DNA of 64,000 nucleotides from a bacterium (GCA_021836725.1 JAKBHL010000011.1:94494-158493), one strand, 5' to 3'. Shown: positions 3,093 through 53,506, numbered from the stretch's first letter. Numbers and translations are program-made. Notes: generated by a model from the letters alone, not told the origin.

Positions 3093-3445
3093 GAACCCAT
3101 CTCAATCTCCCAAGATGACATCTTGAAGACGCTATCTCACTTTGAATTAGGAAACTCCATTTGCGACACGCTCCTCGCTTCCTGCGACTCGTCGCTCTGT
3201 CCTTGCGCTCTCGTTTTTGGCTCGCAAAGCGCGTAGTATAGCCAAAAAACACCAAGCTCAGCGCCTTGCGGACGGTCGCAAATGGAGTTTCCTAATTCAA
3301 AGTATCTCAAACCCCCCGCGAGGGATATGCGGCAGAAAGAGGCTTACGGAGCGTGACGACGCGAGTACGAGCCGCTTTTTGAGCACAAAAAGACGGCGTA
3401 CTCCTTTCTGCAGCATACCCGAGCGGGGAAGTTTGAGACGGGTTC
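3093..3445. mobile_element. MITE-like palindromic repeat, copy 1 (composite: core element plus nested ~30-nt inverted repeats at 3138-3168/3280-3310 and small palindrome CAAGATGACATCTTG)
   Basis: Termini GAACCCATCTCAA ... GTTTGAGACGGGTTC; core GGATATGCGGCAGAAAGAGGCTTACGGAGCG...GAGTACGAGCCGCTTTTTGAGCACAAAAAGACGGCGTACTCCTTTCTGCAGCATACC shared with 6 other loci. Confidence 0.75.
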
Positions 3446-8499: not shown

Positions 8500-9030
8500 A
8501 TGAGCCGCCTCGCAAAAAAGCCGATAGCGATAGGGAAAACCGCAGTCCTCGTGGAGGGCGGGGTACTTTCCGTGAAAGGCGCCAAGGGCGCGCTTACCAA
8601 ACGCATACACCCGGCGGTCGCCATTGCGGTCGATGAGAACGGCGTCTCGATCACGCCGAAAGACCGTTCGCGCCTCGCCAAGGCGCTCACCGGCACGTTC
8701 GCTTCGCATGTGAAAAACATGATGGCCGGCGTCGAGACGCCCTACGTGAAGAAACTCATTCTCGAAGGCGTCGGCTATCGTGTCGAAGTCAAAGGAAGCG
8801 ATATCGTCTTGTCCGTCGGTTTCTCCCACACGGTCGCGCTCAAGATACCGGCGGATGTCTCGGCAACAGTCGAAAAGAACGTTATAAAAATCGAAAGCAT
8901 AAACAAAGAGTCGCTCGGACAATTTGCGGCGGACATACGGCGCGTGAAGCCGCCCGAACCGTACCTGGGGAAGGGCATCCGTTACGAAGGAGAAGTGATC
9001 CGCCGCAAACAAGGCAAGAAAGCCGCTTAA
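8500..9030 (+). CDS. rplF: 50S ribosomal protein L6
   Basis: MSRLAKKPIAIG...KGIRYEGEVIRRK typical L6. Confidence 0.93.
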   Translation: MSRLAKKPIAIGKTAVLVEGGVLSVKGAKGALTKRIHPAVAIAVDENGVSITPKDRSRLAKALTGTFASHVKNMMAGVETPYVKKLILEGVGYRVEVKGSDIVLSVGFSHTVALKIPADVSATVEKNVIKIESINKESLGQFAADIRRVKPPEPYLGKGIRYEGEVIRRKQGKKAA

Positions 9031-13837: not shown

Positions 13838-13991
13838 AACCCATCCCAAAACCCCCGCCTCCCCCGCGAAGGGTATGCGGCAGAAAGAGGCTCTCGGAGC
13901 CCGACGGGGCGAGAGGCGAGCCGCTTTTAGAGCAGAAAAAGACAGCGTACTCCTTTCTGTCGCATACCCGAGGGGGTTTTGGGATGGGTTC
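13838..13991. mobile_element. MITE-like palindromic repeat, copy 2 (canonical; perfect 20-nt TIRs GAACCCATCCCAAAACCCCC / GGGGGTTTTGGGATGGGTTC)
   Basis: Begins immediately after ndk TAG stop (TAGAACCC); core shared with other copies. Confidence 0.85.
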
Positions 13992-18775: not shown

Positions 18776-18925
18776 AACCCATCTCAAAACCCCCGCTCGG
18801 GTATGCGGCAGAAAGGAGTACGCCGTCTTTTTCTGCTCTAAAAGCAGCTCGAACTTACGCCGTCGCGCTCCATAAGCCTCTTTCTGCCGCATACCTCTCG
18901 CGGGGATATAAGGTTTTGAAATGAT
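18775..18925. mobile_element. MITE-like palindromic repeat, copy 3 (opposite orientation of core)
   Basis: Starts at the TAG stop of the upstream gene (TAGAACCCATCTCAAAACCCCC); right end GGTTTTGAAATGAT. Confidence 0.8.
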
Positions 18926-21070: not shown

Positions 21071-21215
21071 AACCATTTCAAAACTCAGCATTTCCCCGAA
21101 GGGTGTGCGACAGAAAGAGGCTTACGGAGCGCGACGGCGCGAGTACGAGCCGCTTTTTGAGCACAAAAAGACGGCGTACTCCTTTCTGCCGCACACCCTT
21201 CGGGGGTCTGTCTTC
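21070..21215. mobile_element. MITE-like palindromic repeat, copy 4
   Basis: GAACCATTTCAAAAC...core identical to copy 1 over ~100 nt. Confidence 0.8.
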
Positions 21216-21815: not shown

Positions 21816-21952
21816 AACCCCCAATCCCCGTCGGATATGCGACAGAAAGGAGTACGCTGTCTTTTCCTTCTGAAAAAGCAGCTCGTACTCGCACCGGCGC
21901 ACTCCGTAAGCCTCTTTCTGCCGCATACCCGAGCGGGGGTTTGGGATGGGTT
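21816..21952. mobile_element. MITE-like palindromic repeat, copy 5
   Basis: TAGAACCCCCAATCCCCGTCGG...GGGGGTTTGGGATGGGTT termini. Confidence 0.8.
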
Positions 21953-26341: not shown

Positions 26342-26523
26342 AACCCATTTCAAACCCCATCTTCTCCTAAGATGTCATCTTAGGAGATTTGACCGGCCTC
26401 CGCGAGAGGTATGCGGCAGAAAGAGGCTTACGGAGCGTGACGACGCGAGTACGAGCCGCTTTTTGAGCACAAAAAGACGGCGTACTCCTTTCTGCCGCAT
26501 ACCCGAGCGGGGGTTTTCTGTCC
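26341..26523. mobile_element. MITE-like palindromic repeat, copy 6 (with nested 40-nt palindrome CTCCTAAGATGTCATCTTAGGAG)
   Basis: AAACCCATTTCAAACCCC left end overlapping the TAA stop of the upstream gene; right end abuts stop of MFS gene on the other strand. Confidence 0.8.
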
Positions 26524-39739: not shown

Positions 39740-41512
39740 ATGAATCTTCTCGGACTGCTTCTTGATAAAGGGCTCCTCTCTTCGACCGACCGAGCGGCAG
39801 TCGAAGCCGCGCTCGCAAAAAAAATCCCTCTGGAGAATGCGCTCGCCGAGCACGGCATCTCTCTCAAAGACGCGCTTGCCGCCGCGGGAGAAGCATATGG
39901 GCTTCCGACGCGCATACTCGGCGATCCTCCCGCAGCCGAAGAAGCGTTCAGCTATATCCCGATAGACTCCGCGCGCCACTACGGATTCGTACCGCTCGAC
40001 GTAGTGGACGGCGCGCTTGAAGTGGGTATCACCGATCCCGACAACATCGAAGCGCTCGACGCGTTGCAGTTCATTTCGGGACAGACCGGCGTTCCCTACA
40101 AGACTTTTCTTATCACGAAACAGGATTTTGACCGCGTATTGAATGCGTACCAAAATCTTTCGGGCGAGATTGGCAGCGCGCTTTCCGAATATGAGACGAC
40201 CACGAAACCCGCTCCTGCTGCCGCGCCCGCCCCGTCCGAATCGGACTCCGCCCTCGACGAAAAGCCGCTGGTCCTCACGGGTGCTCATGAGGTTTTGAAA
40301 GAGGACGCGCCGGTGACAAAAATCGTCTCGACGATATTGCGCTATGCCATTGAGGGACACGCATCCGACATTCACATCGAACCGTCGCCGGGCAAGACGC
40401 GCGTTCGTTTCCGCACCGATGGGGATCTGCACACGTCTTTGGAGCTTCCGGCGAAAATGCACGAAGCGGTGATCGCCCGGGTGAAGATACTCGCGAAGCT
40501 GCGCCTCGACGAGAAAAGAAAGCCGCAGGACGGACGTTTCTCGGCAGTTGTCGAGAAACGCCGTATTGATTTCCGCGTCTCCACCTTTCCGACAGAATTC
40601 GGCGAAAAGGTCGTGATGCGTATTCTCGATCAATCGGCTACCACCGCGTCCCTGGAGTCGATCGGGCTTACCGAGGAGCAGCTCGCCGTAGTCCGCGGCA
40701 TGATGAAAGTCCCGTACGGCATCATCCTCATCGCCGGACCGACCGGTTCGGGAAAATCAACGACGCTTTTCGCGATGCTCTCCGAACTTGATCGCGAGAC
40801 CGCAAACGTCGTCTCGCTCGAAGACCCTGTCGAATACGAGATCCCCGGCGTCGCGCAGAGCCAAGTGCGCCCCGAAATAGGCTATACGTTCGCGAGCGGG
40901 CTCCGTTCCGTCTTGCGCCAGGACCCGGACGTCATCATGGTCGGGGAGATCCGCGATAAAGAGACCGCCGCGCTTGCCGTCCAAGCGGCGCTCACCGGCC
41001 ACCTCGTTTTCTCCACCATCCATACCAATACCGCCGCCGGCGCGATACCGAGGCTCATCGACATGGGCGTCGATCCCTTCCTTGTCGCGCCGACGTTGGT
41101 CGCGGTCATCGGCCAACGCCTTGTGCAAAAACTCTGTACGGGCGCGGGCAAGCCTTTTGCGATTACGGACAGCGTTAAAGAGTTTTTGGATCGGCAATTT
41201 GCGGATCTACCGCAGGAGTACCGCAAAAAATTGCCTCCTTTCAAGGAGTTTTATCACGCCAGCCCGACGGCGGAGTGTCCGAACGGTACGCGCGGGCGCA
41301 TGGCCGTCTTCGAAATACTGCGTATGGACAAGAAGATCGAACAGGTCGTGTTGAAAGCGCCGGTCGAGGAAAATATCTACGCCGCCGCACGCCTGGGCGG
41401 CATGCTCACGATGCGTGAAGACGCCATCGTAAAAGCGCTCGCGGGCGAGATTCCTTTCGAGGAGGTGAATACGCTCGGCGGAGAACTCTTCTCGGCAGGG
41501 GATAGTGCCTGA
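39740..41512 (+). CDS. pilB: Type IV pilus assembly ATPase PilB/GspE family
   Basis: Walker A GPTGSGKST, Asp box, His box, N-terminal GSPII domains; Zn motif reduced to 2 Cys. Confidence 0.92.
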   Translation: MNLLGLLLDKGLLSSTDRAAVEAALAKKIPLENALAEHGISLKDALAAAGEAYGLPTRILGDPPAAEEAFSYIPIDSARHYGFVPLDVVDGALEVGITDPDNIEALDALQFISGQTGVPYKTFLITKQDFDRVLNAYQNLSGEIGSALSEYETTTKPAPAAAPAPSESDSALDEKPLVLTGAHEVLKEDAPVTKIVSTILRYAIEGHASDIHIEPSPGKTRVRFRTDGDLHTSLELPAKMHEAVIARVKILAKLRLDEKRKPQDGRFSAVVEKRRIDFRVSTFPTEFGEKVVMRILDQSATTASLESIGLTEEQLAVVRGMMKVPYGIILIAGPTGSGKSTTLFAMLSELDRETANVVSLEDPVEYEIPGVAQSQVRPEIGYTFASGLRSVLRQDPDVIMVGEIRDKETAALAVQAALTGHLVFSTIHTNTAAGAIPRLIDMGVDPFLVAPTLVAVIGQRLVQKLCTGAGKPFAITDSVKEFLDRQFADLPQEYRKKLPPFKEFYHASPTAECPNGTRGRMAVFEILRMDKKIEQVVLKAPVEENIYAAARLGGMLTMREDAIVKALAGEIPFEEVNTLGGELFSAGDSA

Positions 41513-41538: not shown

Positions 41539-41946
41539 ATGGCATACCGCGTGTATCTCGTTGACGATGACAGGTTCCTGCTTGATCTCTATGCCGTTAA
41601 GTTCAAGAATGCCGGTCACGAAGTGAGCGCGTTTGGCGGCGGCGAAGATCTCCTCGCTGCGCTGCGCAAAGAAGGCGCGGTCACGCCCGACGCGATCCTG
41701 CTCGACATCATCATGCCCGGCATGAACGGTTTTGAAACGCTTGAAACGATACGAAAGGAAGGTCTCGCAAAGGGTGCGAAGATAATCATCCTCTCAAATC
41801 AAGGCCAAGATTCTGACTTCGAGAAATCAAAAGAACTCGTCGCGGACGGTTACATCATAAAGGCGTCCGCTATCCCTTCCGAAGTGCTTGCAGAGACCGT
41901 GCGCATCATCGAAGCGGGCGCATCCCGCGCGGAAGAGTCCCGTTGA
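41539..41946 (+). CDS. Stand-alone response-regulator receiver (CheY-like) domain
   Basis: VYLVDDDRFLL...LLDIIMPGMNG...KIIILSN conserved REC residues. Confidence 0.85.
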   Translation: MAYRVYLVDDDRFLLDLYAVKFKNAGHEVSAFGGGEDLLAALRKEGAVTPDAILLDIIMPGMNGFETLETIRKEGLAKGAKIIILSNQGQDSDFEKSKELVADGYIIKASAIPSEVLAETVRIIEAGASRAEESR

Positions 41947-41950
41947 TCGT

Positions 41951-43012
41951 ATGGCTGCCGAAAAACGTCTCGAAGAACTTCTCAATATCGTTGTCACCGA
42001 AGGCGGTTCCGACTTGCATCTTTTTGCCGGCGGATCGCCGGTGATTCGCGTTTCCAGCACGTTGATTCCTCTTACTAAGTATCCCGCATTTACCGCCGAG
42101 GAGACCGAAGCGATGCTCAAGAGCATCGTGCCGCCGGAGCGATGGGATTCATTCGAGAAGAATCAGACCATCGACCTGTCCTATGCGTACCGGGCGGACA
42201 TGCGCTTCCGCGTGAACGGCTACCGCGTGCAGGGGGGGACCGCCCTTGCGTTCCGGCTCATACCGCATGCTGTCCGCACGTTTACCGAACTCAATCTGCC
42301 TTCCGTGCTCGAAGTCTTTACGCAGCGCGAACAGGGGTTCTTCCTCGTGGTGGGGCCGGTGGGGCAGGGCAAATCAACGACGCTCGCCGCGATGATAAAC
42401 CGCATCAATGATTCGCGCGCCGAGCACATCCTCACCATCGAGGATCCGGTTGAATACCTTTTTACGCCGAAAAAATCCCTCATCCATCAGCGCGAAGTCC
42501 ATATCGATGCGCCGGATTTCGGCACGGCGCTCCAGAGCGCTTTCCGCGAGGACGTCGACGTGATCATGGTCGGCGAGATGCGCGATTACGAGACCATCTC
42601 TTCGGCGGTGACCGCTGCTGAGACCGGCCACCTGGTCTTTTCCACCCTCCATACCAACAACGCCGCGCAGACCATTGATCGCATCATCGACATGTTCCCG
42701 TCCGAACAGCAGGGGCAGGTTCGGGTGCAGCTGGCCGGTTCTCTCGCGGGTATTTTCTCCCAACGGCTCATTCCGCGGGTGTCCGGCGGGCTTATCCCGG
42801 CATACGAACTCCTGATTAATAACAACGCAGTGGCGAACCTTATCCGGGAAGCGCAGACTCACGAGATAAGCGCGGTCATCCAAACTTCTTCGCAGGAGGG
42901 CATGATCGACCTTGATCGCATGCTTGCGGATCTCGTGCATCGGGGCGAAGTGACAGTCGAGCACGCCTACGAACACGCGATGGATCCGAAAACTTTTGAA
43001 CGCTATCTCTAA
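41951..43012 (+). CDS. pilT: Twitching-motility retraction ATPase PilT
   Basis: GPVGQGKSTTLAAMI Walker A, PilT-type AIRNLIRE-like motif (AVANLIREAQ). Confidence 0.9.
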   Translation: MAAEKRLEELLNIVVTEGGSDLHLFAGGSPVIRVSSTLIPLTKYPAFTAEETEAMLKSIVPPERWDSFEKNQTIDLSYAYRADMRFRVNGYRVQGGTALAFRLIPHAVRTFTELNLPSVLEVFTQREQGFFLVVGPVGQGKSTTLAAMINRINDSRAEHILTIEDPVEYLFTPKKSLIHQREVHIDAPDFGTALQSAFREDVDVIMVGEMRDYETISSAVTAAETGHLVFSTLHTNNAAQTIDRIIDMFPSEQQGQVRVQLAGSLAGIFSQRLIPRVSGGLIPAYELLINNNAVANLIREAQTHEISAVIQTSSQEGMIDLDRMLADLVHRGEVTVEHAYEHAMDPKTFERYL

Positions 43013-44222
43013 AACTATGCTCTTCAAATACCGAGCGATCGACCAGGACGGGCACGAACGGGAGGGAACCATAGAAGCTCCTTCCCAGGAGGTCGCAGTC
43101 TCTTCGCTTCAGCGGCGCAATCTCATCATATCGGTCATCGAGTCTTCGGAAAAACATTCATTACTGGAGCTTGAAATCCCGATGTTCAACCGGATTTCAA
43201 ACAAAGAAATAGTCATCCTTTCGCGTCAGATATCAACCCTATTTGAAGCGCAGGTCTCCGCGCTGCGCGTCTTCCGCCTCCTCGCCGCCGAAGTCGACAA
43301 TAAAAAACTCGCAACCGTTCTTTCCACAGTCGGCGATGATATCCAGGGCGGAAGCCCGATAAGCAAAGCGCTCGCGCGCCACCCGAAAGTCTTCGCGCCG
43401 TTCTATGTAAACATGGTCCGTGCGGGAGAGGAGTCGGGCAAATTATCGGAAACGTTCATCTACCTCGCCGACTACCTTGACCGCTCCTACGACGTCATGA
43501 GCAAGGCAGAGAATGCGCTCATCTATCCCGCATTCGTCATCGCGGTCTTCTTCGGCGTGATGGCGCTCATGCTCACGCTCGTCATCCCGAAAATAAGCGC
43601 CGTCCTCATCGATTCTGGACAACCTGTGCCGCTCTATACCCGTATTGTCATCGGCTTCTCTGATTTCCTTGTTAACTACGGCATCTTCCTGCTCATCGCG
43701 CTCATCGCGCTCGGTTTCTACGTGTGGCAGCTCGGAAAGACCGAGCGCGGCAAGCTCATTCTCGACGGCCTGAAGATTTCGGTACCCTATGTCGGCGATC
43801 TCTACAAAAAACTCTATCTCGCGCGCATCGCGGACAATTTCTCCACCATGCTCATTTCCGGCGTCTCGGTCGTCCAAGCGCTCGATATCTCGGCGTCCGT
43901 CGTGGGCAATTCCGTCTATGCAAAGATACTTTCTGAAGTGACCGCGGATGTGAAAGGGGGTTCCTCGATATCCGATGCTTTCGGCAAGCACCCGGAGATG
44001 CCGGGCATCATGGTCGCAATGACGAAAGTCGGCGAAGAAACCGGCGAGCTCGGGAAAATCCTCATTACGCTTGCCAAATTCTACAACCGCGAAGTGAATA
44101 ATGCGGTCGACACGCTCGTCGGCCTCATCGAACCGATCATGATCGTCCTTTTGGGCGTGGGCGTGGGTACGCTCTTGGCCGCAGTTTTGCTCCCGATTTA
44201 TAATCTTGCCGGAGCCATATAG
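42996..44222 (+). CDS. pilC: Type IV pilus inner-membrane platform protein PilC/GspF
   Basis: Two T2SSF repeats, ~400 aa. Confidence 0.88.
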   Translation: MNAISKTMLFKYRAIDQDGHEREGTIEAPSQEVAVSSLQRRNLIISVIESSEKHSLLELEIPMFNRISNKEIVILSRQISTLFEAQVSALRVFRLLAAEVDNKKLATVLSTVGDDIQGGSPISKALARHPKVFAPFYVNMVRAGEESGKLSETFIYLADYLDRSYDVMSKAENALIYPAFVIAVFFGVMALMLTLVIPKISAVLIDSGQPVPLYTRIVIGFSDFLVNYGIFLLIALIALGFYVWQLGKTERGKLILDGLKISVPYVGDLYKKLYLARIADNFSTMLISGVSVVQALDISASVVGNSVYAKILSEVTADVKGGSSISDAFGKHPEMPGIMVAMTKVGEETGELGKILITLAKFYNREVNNAVDTLVGLIEPIMIVLLGVGVGTLLAAVLLPIYNLAGAI

Positions 44223-44332
44223 CACGGCCTCAGCCTCGTGCAAAACGGCACTGGAGGGAACTATCCACACCCTCCCCCATATACACGCCCTGCCAGGCGT
44301 ACAATGGTCCTATTAGCCACACACAACATATT

Positions 44333-44788
44333 ATGTACAAAAATCGTTCTCAAGGTTTCACCCTCATCGAACTTCTCGTCGTGATCGCCATCATCGGCAT
44401 CCTCTCGGCGGTCGTGCTCGCTTCGCTCAACACCGCCCGCCAGAAAGGCAACGATGCCGCCATCCAATCCGACCTCTCGACCATCCAGACTCAGGCCGAG
44501 ATCTACTACGGCGGCGCGGGCAACAACAGCTACGGAACAGTGGCCGGTAGCGCTTGCAATACGGCAAGTACGCTCTTTGCCGATGCGACGATCATAAAAG
44601 CGGTCAATGGCGCTCAGAATGCTGCTGGCACCTCCAATCCGCTTGTCTGTGGTAATTCCACTTCGGCCTATGCGGTTGAAGCGAAACTCACCGCTCCGGC
44701 GACAGCGACGTACTGGTGCGTCGACTCGACCGGCACCGCGAAGCAGGAGACTACGGCATCTGCCGCCGGCTTCACGGTCTGTCCGTAA
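44333..44788 (+). CDS. Type IV pilin (major pilin candidate), paralog 1
   Basis: QGFTLIELLVVIAIIGILSAVVLASLNTARQKG N-terminus. Confidence 0.88.
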   Translation: MYKNRSQGFTLIELLVVIAIIGILSAVVLASLNTARQKGNDAAIQSDLSTIQTQAEIYYGGAGNNSYGTVAGSACNTASTLFADATIIKAVNGAQNAAGTSNPLVCGNSTSAYAVEAKLTAPATATYWCVDSTGTAKQETTASAAGFTVCP

Positions 44789-44819
44789 TTTCCCGTCATT
44801 TATCCCAATCAAATAACTT

Positions 44820-45272
44820 ATGAAAGTACAAAGGCAACGCGGTTTCACCCTCATCGAACTTCTCGTCGTGATCGCCATCATCGGCATCCTCTCGGCGGTC
44901 GTGCTCGCTTCGCTCAACACCGCCCGCCAGAAAGGCAACGATGCCGCCATCCAATCCGACCTCTCGACCATCCAGACTCAGGCCGAGATCTACTACGGCG
45001 GCGCGGGCAACAACAGCTATGGCGCAGCTCAATCGGCTTCCTGTGCCGCGACGACGGGCACCCTCTGGTCGGATCCGACGATCGTCAAGGCCGTTACAGG
45101 CGCTCAGAACGCCTCGGGTGCGGCTGCAAATGTTGTATGTAATAGCACGGCGACCGCCTATGCGATATCGGCTCAGTTGACAGCAGTAAGCGGTACGTGG
45201 TGGTGCGTCGACTCGACCGGCACGGCGAAGCAAGAAACTGCTGCCCTCGGCACTCTCACGGCCTGTCAGTAA
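44820..45272 (+). CDS. Type IV pilin, paralog 2 (5' 179 nt identical to paralog 1)
   Basis: nt 44841-45019 identical to 44354-44532; C-terminal halves diverge. Confidence 0.88.
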   Translation: MKVQRQRGFTLIELLVVIAIIGILSAVVLASLNTARQKGNDAAIQSDLSTIQTQAEIYYGGAGNNSYGAAQSASCAATTGTLWSDPTIVKAVTGAQNASGAAANVVCNSTATAYAISAQLTAVSGTWWCVDSTGTAKQETAALGTLTACQ

Positions 45273-45335
45273 GTCTTTTCGGTGCGCACGTAAGAAGCCC
45301 GCGGCACAGCCGCGGGCTTCTGTTATGATGCGTGC

Positions 45336-46097
45336 ATGCTTTTTCTCCTCACGATCCTATTTTTTGCGCTCGGGGCTATCGTGGCAAGTTTCGTCGGAGT
45401 ACTTGTCGCGCGCCTCAATACCGGTCAGAGTTTTCTTATCGGGCGTTCTCGTTGCGACACGTGCGGCGCGCCGCTTTCGCCGTTCTCACTCATTCCGATC
45501 ATCTCATACGTCGCGCTTGGCGCCCGCGCGCGCTGCTGCGGCGCACGCCTCTCATTCTTCGCGCCTCTCATGGAATTGCTCTTGGGAGGGCTTTTCGCAC
45601 TCGCGTATCTCAAGATCGGTTTTACCGCCGCGCTGCCGTTTATGCTTTTTTCGCTCTCGACGCTCCTCGCGCTCGTCCTCTACGACCTTGCTCACCAAAT
45701 ACTCCCGTCCGTGCTCCTCGGAGCATTCGTCCTTGCGAGCGCTTGCGCGGGATTTTTACCAGCGGAGGATATGAGCGCATTCGGCGTCTCGCTCATGGTC
45801 GCCGGCGCGTTTGCGCTCTTTCTGGCGCTCATCAACCTCCTCTCGCGCGGGCGGGCGATGGGGCTCGCCGACGCGCCGTTTGTGTTCGGACTCGCGCTTC
45901 TGACGGGCCCCGCCGCGCCCGCCGGTTTCATCTCATCGTTTTGGATCGGTGCGGTTATAGGGATAATCGTGTTGGCACGGAGACCGCGAGGTTCTAGAAT
46001 GGGAGTTGAGGTACCGTTTGCGCCTTTCCTCGCCGCCGGTTTCCTCCTCATGTACTTTACTCAATGGAACCCTCTCATCATCGCGGCTTTACGCTGA
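45336..46097 (+). CDS. pilD: Prepilin peptidase (A24 family) PilD
   Basis: N-terminal CDTC...CC zinc-binding region, 6-8 TM helices, conserved Asp-containing loops. Confidence 0.85.
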   Translation: MLFLLTILFFALGAIVASFVGVLVARLNTGQSFLIGRSRCDTCGAPLSPFSLIPIISYVALGARARCCGARLSFFAPLMELLLGGLFALAYLKIGFTAALPFMLFSLSTLLALVLYDLAHQILPSVLLGAFVLASACAGFLPAEDMSAFGVSLMVAGAFALFLALINLLSRGRAMGLADAPFVFGLALLTGPAAPAGFISSFWIGAVIGIIVLARRPRGSRMGVEVPFAPFLAAGFLLMYFTQWNPLIIAALR

Positions 46098-46729
46098 TCG
46101 AACTTCTGGTCGTGTTGGCGATCATGGTCATCCTCACCGCGGTCGTGCTGACCAGCCAAAGCTCTTTCAATAAGACACTCATCCTTGCGAATACCGCATA
46201 CGATGTGGCGCTCACCCTGCGCAGCGCCGAGACCTATGGCCTGGGCAATCGCGTGGCCGGGACCGTAGAAAACGCAGGATACGGCCTCGATTTCCAAAAA
46301 GCGACGCCGGGTTCCTTCACGCTTTTTGCCGATACGTACCCGCCGCCCTCCTCCACAAGCTGTCACCCGACCACCGACCCGACGGCCCCGAACGCCCGCC
46401 CGGGCGACTGCGTGTATGAGGCGAATCAGGGCGAGAAGGTCACCGGTTATACGCTCGGGAATGGCATTACGGTGAGCGATTTTTGCGCCTATACGCCGAA
46501 CACGCTGTCGTGGTCGTGCGCGAATTCCGGTAATCAGGCGCTCACGGTACTCGATATCATTTTCTCGCGCCCGAATCCCGATCCGTTCATGAGCGTAAAC
46601 GGCGCTTATTCGGCATCGTCTCCGGTAACGCAAGCGTGCCTCACCCTTTCCTCTCCGCAGGGCGGCTCGCGCTTCATTTCAGTCGGCGCGTCGGGAGAGA
46701 TAAACGCGACCGCCACCTCATGCCCATGA
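46064..46729 (+). CDS. Pseudopilin/minor pilin with prepilin motif
   Basis: RGFTLIELLVVLAIMVIL N-terminus. Confidence 0.75.
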   Translation: MEPSHHRGFTLIELLVVLAIMVILTAVVLTSQSSFNKTLILANTAYDVALTLRSAETYGLGNRVAGTVENAGYGLDFQKATPGSFTLFADTYPPPSSTSCHPTTDPTAPNARPGDCVYEANQGEKVTGYTLGNGITVSDFCAYTPNTLSWSCANSGNQALTVLDIIFSRPNPDPFMSVNGAYSASSPVTQACLTLSSPQGGSRFISVGASGEINATATSCP

Positions 46730-47244
46730 CCCGCTCCAGAGGATACACGCTCATCGAACTCATCGTCGCGATGGGGCTCTTTTCGCTCATCATGCTGCTG
46801 GCTTCGGGCGCCTACCTCATTCTGATAGGCGCCAACCGGCAAGCGCAGGCCATTTCCACCGGTATCGACAATCTTTCTTTCGCTCTTGAAAGCATGACGC
46901 GCAGCATCCGTACCGGCACGAACTATAACTGCGGCGGCCTGGGCGATTGTCCGAGTGGCGCCAGCAGTTTTTCTGTCGTGGACGATAACGGCGCGTCGGT
47001 CACGTATAGCCTTGTCGGATCCGCGATTCAAAAAATGACGGGCAATACGGCGAGCACGCTCACCGACCCGTCAGTGACTATCTCGTCCTTGACGTTCTAT
47101 GCGTTTGGCACGCATCCGGCGCCGACCGATTACCAGCAAGCGCGCGTTACCATCATCGTTTCAGGCACCGTCTCCTCCGGCCCGGGGAAAACGGAACCGT
47201 TTACGATTGAAACCGGCGCGACAATGCGCGGATCCGATATATGA
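46720..47244 (+). CDS. Pseudopilin/minor pilin (GspJ/PilW-like)
   Basis: RGYTLIELIVAMGLFSLIML N-terminus; internal start within longer ORF. Confidence 0.7.
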   Translation: MPMTRSRGYTLIELIVAMGLFSLIMLLASGAYLILIGANRQAQAISTGIDNLSFALESMTRSIRTGTNYNCGGLGDCPSGASSFSVVDDNGASVTYSLVGSAIQKMTGNTASTLTDPSVTISSLTFYAFGTHPAPTDYQQARVTIIVSGTVSSGPGKTEPFTIETGATMRGSDI

Positions 47245-48005
47245 AAACATTCCACGAGCCTGAAACTCACCCCGACTCCCCGCTCGGGTATGCGACAGAA
47301 AGGAGTACGCCGTCTTTTTGTGCTCAAAAAGCGGCTCGTACTCGCCCCGTCGGGCTCCGTAAGCCTCTTTCTGCCGCATACCTCTCGCGGGGATGCGAGA
47401 GGTTAGAAGCGGGTCTCGGAGAGCGAAGCCAGCTTCGCGGCTTCACGCTCATCGAAGCCATGATCGCCGTAAGCATCCTCGCGCTTGCGGTCGCGGGGCC
47501 TCTGTTCGGCGCGGATCGCGCTATCGTCGCCGCGGAGGGCGCGCGCTACCAGCTCACCGCTTCCTATCTCGCGCAAGAAGGCGTCGAGTACGTGCGCGCG
47601 ATGCGCGATGATGAGTATCTCCTCGCATATCAGGCGGGCGGCACAAACACCTCAAGCGCCGCCTGGACCGACTTCCTTACCGGAACGGACAGCGCGGCCA
47701 TCACCCAATGCCGTTCAATGACCTGCACGCTCGATCCGGCGCTTCCGATGGGCACCGGAAGCGGATTCTCGCTCAACCCCTGTACCGGCAGCGCCTGCAC
47801 GCCGCTCTATCTCGCAAACAACGGTACTACGAACTACTACACCGAGCAGAGCGGCAATGGCGCGATACTACAGCCGTTCACGCGCACGATACAAGCGTTT
47901 ACGGTCTCTTCCACCGAGGAGCGCATCGTCTCGATCGTGTCGTGGAATTTCCATGGTATCCCGTACACAGTTACGGTGATAGACCACCTTACGTCATGGC
48001 AATGA
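47241..48005 (+). CDS. Pseudopilin with prepilin motif; only in-frame start (47241) lies upstream of the MITE, giving a ~65-aa leader read through the element
   Basis: ...LRGFTLIEAMIAVSILALAV prepilin motif at aa ~60; no in-frame ATG/GTG/TTG between MITE and motif. Confidence 0.55.
   Translation: MKTFHEPETHPDSPLGYATERSTPSFCAQKAARTRPVGLRKPLSAAYLSRGCERLEAGLGERSQLRGFTLIEAMIAVSILALAVAGPLFGADRAIVAAEGARYQLTASYLAQEGVEYVRAMRDDEYLLAYQAGGTNTSSAAWTDFLTGTDSAAITQCRSMTCTLDPALPMGTGSGFSLNPCTGSACTPLYLANNGTTNYYTEQSGNGAILQPFTRTIQAFTVSSTEERIVSIVSWNFHGIPYTVTVIDHLTSWQ
47262..47418. mobile_element. MITE-like palindromic repeat, copy 7 (inside the 5' end of the next pseudopilin ORF)
   Basis: CCCCGCTCGGGTATGCGACAGAAAGGAGTACGCC...CTTTCTGCCGCATACCTCTCGCGGGG core. 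Confidence 0.8.
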
Positions 48006-48520
48006 AAAACAAAAATGGCCCCGCGCACATACGCCCCTCCGCGTCTCGGCGGGGGTTCGCGCTCCTCATGGCTCTCATTTTCATGTCGGTGATGCTGAGC
48101 ATCGGCCTCACGCTCGGCTCCCTCGCGTACAAACAGCAAGTGCTCGCTTCCTCGGCCATCGAATCGCAGTATGCGTTTTATGCTGCCGACAGCGCGCTTG
48201 AATGCGCCCTCTATGCCGATCAGCAGCAGAATCTCTTCGCCTATCCTCCGACTACGCCCTCCTCGGCTCCGCTCATGTCCTGCGGTTCGAGCGCGCCGGT
48301 CTCTGCAACCGTACTCTCCTATACTCCAAGCCAGTGGATTATCGCCACACGCCTTTCGCTCGATTCGGGGAAGCATTGCGCGGACGTAACGGTCTATAAA
48401 CCGGCGCTTAGCAGCGGCACGACCTATCTCTTCTCGCAGGGCTACGACGTTCCGTGCGCCACGGTAGCAAGTCCCGGAGGAACGCGCTTTGTATCCCGCG
48501 GTATCAGCGCCCATTACTAG
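47990..48520 (+). CDS. PilX_N-domain pilus assembly protein
   Basis: RRGFALLMALIFMSVMLSIGLTLG typical PilX N-terminal domain. Confidence 0.65.
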   Translation, partial: YVMAMKNKNGPAHIRPSASRRGFALLMALIFMSVMLSIGLTLGSLAYKQQVLASSAIESQYAFYAADSALECALYADQQQNLFAYPPTTPSSAPLMSCGSSAPVSATVLSYTPSQWIIATRLSLDSGKHCADVTVYKPALSSGTTYLFSQGYDVPCATVASPGGTRFVSRGISAHY

Positions 48521-53080: not shown

Positions 53081-53098
53081 TTCCTATACTTGCCCCTA

Positions 53099-53506
53099 GC
53101 GGGGTAGAGGAGAGGTACCTCGGGAGGCTCATGTGAAAACGTGACCCTATCCGGTAACGGGTAGTGGAAAAACTCTCTAAATTGCTGGAATACCGTTAGA
53201 GCTTCTTGTGCTACAGCGCGATCCGAAAGGATGAGCGCGAACGCCTAAAAAACGAGAAGATTCGGCAATCAGCAGCCAAGCCTAGTTTTACTTCGGGGGT
53301 TCCCCCATTCCGATGGGGAAGGCGAACGGCGGAGTGCGAAAGTGAGGACAAAGTCCGAGCGGGAGCAACTCCGGTAAGTGAGACTGGGAAGGTTCAGAGA
53401 CTATAATGGGAGAGTCCTTATGGGATTGTGGTATAGTCCATTCCTGTTGGAAACAGCAGGTGTAAAAGAACCTCCAGACGCCGGTTCGATTCCGGCCCCC
53501 GCAACA
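53099..53506 (+). ncRNA. ssrA: Candidate tmRNA (ssrA), ~400 nt
   Basis: 3' tRNA-like end GCCGG-TTCGATT-CCGGC-CCCCGC-A with 5' GCGGGGT able to form the acceptor stem; promoter upstream and hairpin terminator downstream; tag ORF not confidently identified. Confidence 0.5.

Follow-up and report, generated by a model that had tools for sequence, protein, structure and literature searches.

Two adjacent pilin genes in a 64,000-nt stretch of bacterial DNA (GCA_021836725.1 JAKBHL010000011.1:94494-158493; hereafter the window) are identical over a long 5′ segment while their 3′ halves diverge, and the question is what has kept one part of the pair identical. The initial annotation had described tandem pilin paralogs that share a perfectly identical 179-nt segment encoding the N-terminal α-helix region, had ascribed this identity to either gene conversion or recent duplication, and had regarded the segment as a substrate for recombinational pilin variation or copy-number change.

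The two genes, g1 and g2, are co-oriented open reading frames (ORFs) located between pilC and pilD (Table 1), and both matched PF07963 (N_methyl) with scores of 39.5 and 40.5 bits, the cut-off being 21.2, as expected of the tandem pilin paralogs that had been annotated. Genes for a prepilin peptidase and for PilB, PilC, and PilT (Pfam T2SSE, T2SSF, and A24_N_bact) flank the pair within a complete type IV pilus operon, and ligA follows the four genes downstream of pilD. Gene lengths for the stretch of pilB, the response regulator, and pilT were taken from the syntenic locus L001. In the PilD homolog, only the N-terminal PF06750 was matched at E ≤ 0.01 and Peptidase_A24 (PF01478) was not reported; thus, its peptidase part may be divergent. 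The g1 and g2 genes are probably co-transcribed, since a scan of the + strand found no promoter-like or terminator-like site in the 31-nt spacer and a strong hairpin is placed after g2. RNA folding of 45273-45335, the region of this hairpin, gave −38.3 kcal/mol; the hairpin was not called by the consensus terminator scan, and its T run is weak. The pilin homologs carry the source names Patescibacteria, Paceibacterota, or Minisyncoccia, and the closest named relatives of PilC are Candidatus Kaiserbacteria. The lineage belongs to Paceibacteria, near Kaiserbacteria, and is an uncultivated ultra-small Patescibacteria bacterium.

Table 1. Positions of the pilus genes, the homogenised tract, and other features in the window
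Feature	Position (nt)	Strand	Evidence or remark
pilB ATPase	39740-41512	+	T2SSE Pfam match
CheY-type response regulator	41539-41946	+	Pfam
pilT-like ATPase	about 41951-43012	+	T2SSE Pfam match
pilC, platform protein, T2SSF family	42996-44222	+	PF00482, E 1.8e-57; directly upstream of pilin pair
Promoter-like site, TTGGCC-18 nt-TATAAT	44175-44204	+	Within pilC 3′ end, upstream of g1; consensus match only
Pilin gene 1 (g1)	44333-44788	+	151-aa prepilin ORF; PF07963, E 3.5e-10
g1 leader codons, outside tract	44333-44353	+	38% identical to g2 leader; 95-100% to g1 orthologs
Homogenised tract, copy 1	44354-44532	+	Exact identity; concerted substitutions across genomes
Second identity island, copy 1 (23 nt, exact)	44714-44736	+	Within YWCVDSTGTAKQE codons (beta strands 127-131, 136-139); offset 487
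g1-g2 spacer (31 nt)	44789-44819	+	Sequence and promoter/terminator scan
Pilin gene 2 (g2)	44820-45272	+	150-aa prepilin ORF; PF07963, E 1.6e-10
g2 leader codons, outside tract	44820-44840	+	90-100% identical to g2 orthologs
Homogenised tract, copy 2	44841-45019	+	Exact identity; concerted substitutions across genomes
Second identity island, copy 2	45201-45223	+	Exact match, offset 487
Terminator-like GC-rich hairpin just 3′ of g2	45295-45321	+	11-bp stem, 5-nt loop, then TGTTAT
pilD, prepilin peptidase	45336-46097	+	PF06750, E 1.3e-21; directly downstream of pilin pair
Minor-pilin gene	46064-46729	+	ORF, Pfam, synteny
Minor-pilin gene	about 46720-47244	+	ORF, Pfam, synteny
Minor-pilin gene	47241-48005	+	ORF, Pfam, synteny
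Fourth downstream ORF	about 48002-48520	+	Without pilin family match
Dispersed element	3313-3428	+	
Dispersed element	13861-13980	+	
Dispersed element	18786-18903	-	
Dispersed element	21093-21207	+	
Dispersed element	21823-21929	-	
Dispersed element	26397-26517	+	
Dispersed element	47278-47390	-	

The g1 product begins with the leader MYKNRSQ and the g2 product with MKVQRQR, each followed by G/FTLIELL. Both leaders are thus short and basic, with seven residues before the Gly, and the hydrophobic FTLIE with Glu5 that marks a type IV pilin follows; judging from sequence, both pilins would be processed by PilD. The mature proteins are both about 143 aa long, and Gly, Ala, Ser, and Thr together account for 48% of g1 and 50% of g2, a length and content typical of major pilins (PMC11623550). 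In an AlphaFold2 model (pLDDT 80.6), residues 11-59 form the α1 helix and residues 85-98 another helix, the loop between them being of low confidence, and four strands follow at 105-139. A profile of 63 homologs matched full-length type IVa pilins in the PDB (9laa, 7e-8; Neisseria meningitidis PilE, 1.6e-7), and Foldseek returned no significant PDB hit for the model (best E 0.5). Taking motif, operon context, fold, and composition together, g1 and g2 are type IVa major-type pilins. Their heads are about 55% identical in protein, the g1 head carrying Cys75, Cys106, Cys129, and Cys150. The ortholog dN/dS of the heads was 0.15-0.24 for g1 and 0.05-0.06 for the slower g2; this faster non-synonymous change in the g1 head hints at different exposure or roles of the two subunits.

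The reported 179-nt identity was confirmed exactly: the two tract copies match at an offset of 487, and the match cannot be extended by even one base on either side. Each copy is in frame within its ORF; it opens with the cleavage-motif codon for Gly(−1) and stops two bases into the Tyr67 codon. The product, prepilin residues 8-67 (G(−1)FTLIE...GGAGNNSY), comprises Gly(−1), all of α1, and the first eight residues of the α-β loop, so its description as the N-terminal α-helix region agrees with the modelled structure. No exact repeat in the 64-kb window is longer than the tract, the runner-up being an 86-nt repeat of an unrelated dispersed element, and no further tract copies were found within the window. 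Outside the tract, the leaders of g1 and g2 are as unlike as listed in Table 1, and the 3′ parts are 60.4% identical, with a pS of 0.68, a dS of 1.77, and a dN of 0.39, bearing out the annotated divergence of the 3′ halves. At the rate of the 3′ part, the probability of zero synonymous changes over the about 45 synonymous sites of the tract is about 4e-23; with the tract rate cut threefold, as found between orthologs, it is still about 9e-11. The GC3 of the tract is 0.85-0.87, compared with 0.62-0.64 in the remainder of the genes. The same tandem layout and the same 179-nt tract occur in two independent assemblies, L159 (GCA_027422635.1) and L160, an ENA contig, and therefore did not arise as an error confined to the assembly of the window. 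One or two true differences between the copies could nonetheless be masked by bubble-popping or consensus polishing when short reads are assembled.

Syntenic loci of related genomes, whose DNA is about 91% identical to that of the window, were then used for a three-genome comparison of the window, L001 (with L002), and L004. Each genome has an exact shared tract of its own, 187 nt long in L001/L002 and 183 nt long in L004, and all of them begin at gene position 22. Between genomes the tract differs at 8-12 of its 179 sites, mostly synonymous, and at all 15 of the 15 variable tract sites the two paralogs of each genome carry the same base. Tract identity was 100% between paralogs within a genome and 93.3-95.5% between orthologs; the corresponding values were 60-66% and 81-88% for the 3′ parts (heads) and 33-38% and 90-100% for the leaders. 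Leaders and heads cluster by gene position, not by genome, and this orthology by position across the window, L001/L002, and L004 indicates that the duplication predates these genomes. The comparison of 5′ with 3′ rates that the initial annotation had proposed gave a paralog dS of 0-0.02 in the tract versus 1.1-2.6 in the 3′ part. Between orthologs, the tract dS was 0.14-0.24; synonymous tract sites are thus free to change, but as this dS is about one third of that of the 3′ part, extra constraint or between-strain recombination also acts on the tract. The second island in L001 carries three lineage-specific substitutions common to both paralogs. Among more distant relatives, the shared tract is 101 nt long in L012 and only 19 nt long in L006/L007, where the paralog dS of the tract region is 1.3. 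Given that L006/L007 keep both genes with this region diverged, the identity is unneeded for function, and it may be a neutral by-product.

The near-zero paralog dS, the 15 of 15 shared sites, and the separate tract of each genome point to concerted evolution by recurrent interlocus gene conversion. The pair is very probably an ancient tandem duplicate of a type IVa major-type pilin gene whose α1-coding 5′ segment has been homogenised in this way, a process that we infer from the pattern rather than from conversion events directly seen. Of the two causes named in the initial annotation, gene conversion is thus favoured by the concerted sites, and recent duplication is refuted by the saturated dS and by the positional grouping in at least three genomes. 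Homologous recombination between the direct copies, presumably of the RecA type, would carry the α1-coding segment non-reciprocally from one gene to the other; owing to this repeated copying between g1 and g2, the segment would evolve as one unit within each genome. The tract ends where similarity collapses, that is, at the start of the mature protein on the 5′ side, because the leaders are unrelated in sequence, and at the start of the variable α-β loop on the 3′ side. Purifying selection on α1, the helix that makes up the core of the filament and touches the assembly machinery, would keep the copies alike enough for conversion, and conversion would erase the differences that arise, so that the process would be self-sustaining. 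The heads, outside the tract, meanwhile diverge independently. The tract repeat would also be a plausible substrate for deletion or duplication that yields hybrid genes.

The same alignments bear on the other readings of the identity. Were the tract the remnant of a recent tandem duplication whose 3′ half diverged fast under positive selection, tandem, co-oriented genes of equal length in the same frame register would be expected, and such they are; yet the 3′ synonymous sites are saturated, the leaders are unrelated, clear g1 and g2 orthologs exist in at least three genomes at about 9% DNA divergence, and all between-genome tract substitutions are found in both paralogs, which a single duplication, old or young, cannot yield. 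We consider this reading to have next to no probability. It is also highly improbable that purifying selection at the nucleotide level (mRNA structure, codon optimisation, or an embedded signal) maintained the identity without exchange. The raised GC3 of the tract and the roughly threefold lower ortholog dS there relative to the 3′ part would fit such selection, but the tract sites that do differ between genomes are mostly synonymous and always changed in both paralogs together, the same region has reached a paralog dS of 1.3 in L006/L007, and GC3 excess was uncorrelated with paralog identity across 47 genomes (rho 0.10, p 0.5). GC-biased gene conversion, considered because of the high tract GC3 (0.86 versus 0.62), was rejected for lack of the same correlation. 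That metagenome assembly or polishing created the duplication or its perfect identity is very unlikely as well. The window does lie on a metagenome-assembled contig, contig titles of related metagenome-assembled genomes (MAGs) give a coverage of about 2.7-3.3×, repeats longer than the k-mer are error-prone, and hybrid genes are present in related assemblies. Nevertheless, at least nine independent contigs (L001-L007, L159, and L160) show the two genes in tandem, each with a leader and a head of its own and with the spacer between them, diverged forms of this arrangement are found in dozens of species, and lineage-specific substitutions common to both copies are not creatable by assembly.

The population recombinants and copy-number variants that the initial annotation had suggested looking for were searched for in public assemblies, and candidates occurred in the lineages of the window, L001, L004, and L158, although they may be assembly paths. 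L008 (GCA_021778295.1) is 100% identical to L004 over 6204 nt to the end of the tract and 99.9% identical from the second tract on; it thus represents a clean 486-nt deletion relative to L004 that leaves one hybrid gene, composed of the g1 leader, the tract, and the g2 head. The same hybrid gene is found in L009, L010, and L011. For the window's lineage, a join of 44163-44532 to 44841-45360 reproduces L155 at 100% identity, and L154 is similar. L156 and L157, from the L001 lineage, carry a single hybrid gene between flanks 99.9-100% identical to L001, and L158 (GCA_054610295.1), from a lineage with only about 86% DNA identity, likewise carries one gene of the hybrid type. Reciprocal hybrids, with the g2 leader and the g1 head, are P0124, P0126, P0135, and the second gene of L005, all from contigs of 657-2867 nt. 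In the protein cluster table, P0133 is identical in protein to g1 of the window. In the 780-nt L011 (ERZ27236874 k141_1479098), the upstream 142 nt and the tract are L001-like (95%) and the head and downstream part are 100% of the L004 type; it stems either from recombination between strains or from assembly of a chimera whose parts meet in the conserved tract. Typing of the distant single pilins L017, L018, L020, and L027 as head 1 or head 2 was abandoned, since they are 35-49% identical to both and too diverged.

The ENA contigs with hybrids are megahit k141 assemblies, and contig titles of related MAGs indicate about 3× coverage. A tandem of the form A-R-B-R-C, in which the repeat R is longer than k, contains every k-mer of A-R-C and of B-R-B, and the hybrids may therefore be assembly paths rather than molecules. 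For this reason a megahit A-R-C contig was not accepted as proof of deletion: with k below the repeat length, the tandem genome contains all of its k-mers too, and the competing edges can be lost through coverage gaps at low depth. At least some of the hybrids are possibly, though not probably, real. The wider proposition, that recombination within the tract recurrently deletes or duplicates the inter-repeat segment and that one-, two-, and possibly three-pilin haplotypes coexist in at least three lineages, we hold to be rather unlikely. The annotated role of the tract as a substrate for recombination or copy-number change thus gains candidate hybrids and reciprocals in related assemblies but, as these are possibly assembly artefacts, is unproven. 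As the repeat in the pilC-pilD interval is longer than typical k-mers, pilin copy numbers and hybrids in MAGs are untrustworthy without read support, and this repeat is a practical point for annotators and assemblers of these genomes.

A further reading makes the tract the recombination site of a dedicated variation system, a programmed head-swap or copy-number switch similar in purpose to Neisseria pilE/pilS or Moraxella tfpQ/tfpI. In its favour, all four leader-by-head combinations are present in public assemblies, single genes that join leader 1 to head 2, their flanks matching the tandem versions at 99.7-100%, are known from the lineages of the window, L001, and L004, and a single hybrid is found again in the L158 lineage, about 14% diverged in DNA. 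These forms can, however, be explained by paths that a de Bruijn graph allows when the repeat exceeds k, and those with leader 2 and head 1 come from the short contigs noted above. Both genes are complete, with start codon and leader, leaving no silent cassettes; the copies are direct, not inverted; a recombinase gene is absent from the cluster; no G4 motif (G3+N1-7 x4) was found on either strand of 43800-45700; and it is the conserved part, not the variable part, that is homogenised. A dedicated system is therefore improbable.

The pair was also compared with characterised systems. In Neisseria gonorrhoeae and N. meningitidis, pilE-pilS variation likewise proceeds by non-reciprocal, RecA-dependent gene conversion between pilin copies (PMC2188579 and PMC13463697), but the donors there are promoterless, 5′-truncated silent copies that give variable 3′ sequence to one expressed gene, and a G4/R-loop initiator is needed. 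With no silent cassettes, no G4 motif, and the conserved 5′ part exchanged, the window pair is not a Neisseria-type variation system. Nor is it an invertible switch like Moraxella tfpQ/tfpI-Piv, in which inverted segments adjoin a site-specific recombinase, because its repeats are direct and a recombinase is absent from the cluster, which contains only pilB, the response regulator, pilT, pilC, pilD, and pilins. The closest analogue is Streptococcus sanguinis pilE1/pilE2 (pilA1-3), which forms a heteropolymeric type IV pilus (PMC10628169 and PMC11121087). In this monoderm, two or three adjacent major-pilin genes, their number varying with the strain, lie in the pil operon; PilA1 and PilA3 are identical in α1 (residues 1-53), and the paralogs are more alike within than between strains (PMC10628169 and PMC11121087). 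The window similarly has two adjacent major-pilin-like genes with identical α1 and different heads. The S. sanguinis heads are, however, 70-94% alike in amino acids and their co-assembly was demonstrated by cryo-EM, whereas the window heads are much less alike and expression and co-assembly of the subunits are predictions; conversely, the nucleotide-level concerted pattern was analysed here and not in the S. sanguinis papers (PMC10628169 and PMC11121087). The archaeal ArlB1/ArlB2 of Methanocaldococcus villosus (cited in PMC10628169) are likewise two paralogous major subunits of a type IV filament, but alternate regularly as pre-formed heterodimers. Another type IV pilus from Patescibacteria, that of Saccharibacteria TM7x, likewise has a small major pilin, folded as a type IVa "lollipop" (PMC11623550); in TM7x, though, PilA1 and PilA2 belong to two separate pilus systems at different loci (PMC11623550), unlike the tandem pair with its shared 5′ tract. 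In principle, the case does not differ from general interlocus conversion of tandem duplicates (PMC2720389 and PMC3924837), whose defining pattern is the same: paralogs more alike than orthologs, flanked by normal orthology. Concerted evolution itself is ordinary and known; what is new is its instance in a Patescibacteria pilin pair, and our literature search found no description of this tandem-pilin tract pattern in Patescibacteria.

How widely such tracts occur was surveyed at two levels. A pilC-anchored scan with one genome per species yielded 80 loci, 47 of which have at least two major-type pilins directly after pilC. An exact shared run of 40 nt or longer lies within the first 200 nt in 14 of these 47 species-level pairs, and in 22 the shared run does not exceed 14 nt. 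Adjacent pairs on metagenome contigs shared at least 40 nt in 11 cases of 49 and at least 100 nt in none. About a quarter of the roughly 100 tandem pairs surveyed thus have shorter shared tracts (40-104 nt), and the run lengths in both surveys indicate that the window's clade is the extreme of a common, graded phenomenon. Metagenome contigs scanned with g2 contained no close relatives or population variants of the window's lineage (best full-length match, 74%). Two loci of other Paceibacteria depart from this form. In L071 (5338-6444), a 453-nt identity that starts at position 55 unites two pilins of 168 residues and points to conversion of nearly the whole gene or to very recent duplication; in L021 (5803-6927), an exact run of 82 nt is common to the second and third pilins and lies at the 3′ ends, not the 5′ ends.

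Elements unrelated to the tract were also recorded in the window. A dispersed palindromic element of about 120 nt (about 160 nt with outer arms) is present in seven copies in the 64 kb (Table 1). It has long terminal inverted repeats, GGTATGCGGCAGAAAGAGG ... CCTTTCTGCCGCATACC, a predicted RNA/DNA hairpin of about −70 kcal/mol, and an internal stem with compensatory changes between copies, and most copies lie just after genes, similar to REP/MITE elements; Rfam has no family for it. One copy is inside the leader-coding part of the last minor-pilin ORF (47241-48005; region 47241-47440), which reads MKTFHE, then the element, then SQLRGFTLIE, and no in-frame ATG, GTG, or TTG occurs between the element and the GFTLIE motif. 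L001 (8933-9091), L004 (8961-9064), and L008 have the element at the same site with its core inverted and the 256-aa ORF still open; L006 (about 8960-9000) and L158 are without it, the L006 leader being MSMKKFTGFTLIE. The element may have inserted in frame, as Rickettsia palindromic elements do, and may undergo flip-flop inversion between the inverted repeats that it carries; chance is possible too, as about half of the frames are open across the element. Separately, a tRNA-Met/Ile2-type gene with anticodon CAT (53098-53505, + strand) carries an intron of about 336 nt in the anticodon loop, matched at 53121-53460 by the Rfam group I intron model RF00028 (60.2 bits), and ARAGORN detects this tRNA only with introns allowed.

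Few surface structures are conserved across Patescibacteria, and type IV pili are one of them; cultivated Saccharibacteria use these pili for host binding, competition, and motility (PMC11623550). With identical α1 helices, the two subunits of the pair should suit PilD, PilC, and the filament core equally well; g1 and g2 would be able to enter the same filament, and they could form mixed or alternative filaments, as PilE1 and PilE2 of S. sanguinis do (PMC10628169). Many Paceibacteria have two or three tandem major-type pilins with diverging heads, among which gene conversion preserves an identical or nearly identical, assembly-competent α1; this suggests that mixed or alternative filaments are common in the group. 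If the hybrid genes are real, the tract would constitute a high-frequency, homology-driven switch of pilus surface composition in an uncultivated, probably episymbiotic bacterium, and this could alter host attachment or phage susceptibility. The pilin pair is thus a concrete, testable locus for population-level pilin variation.
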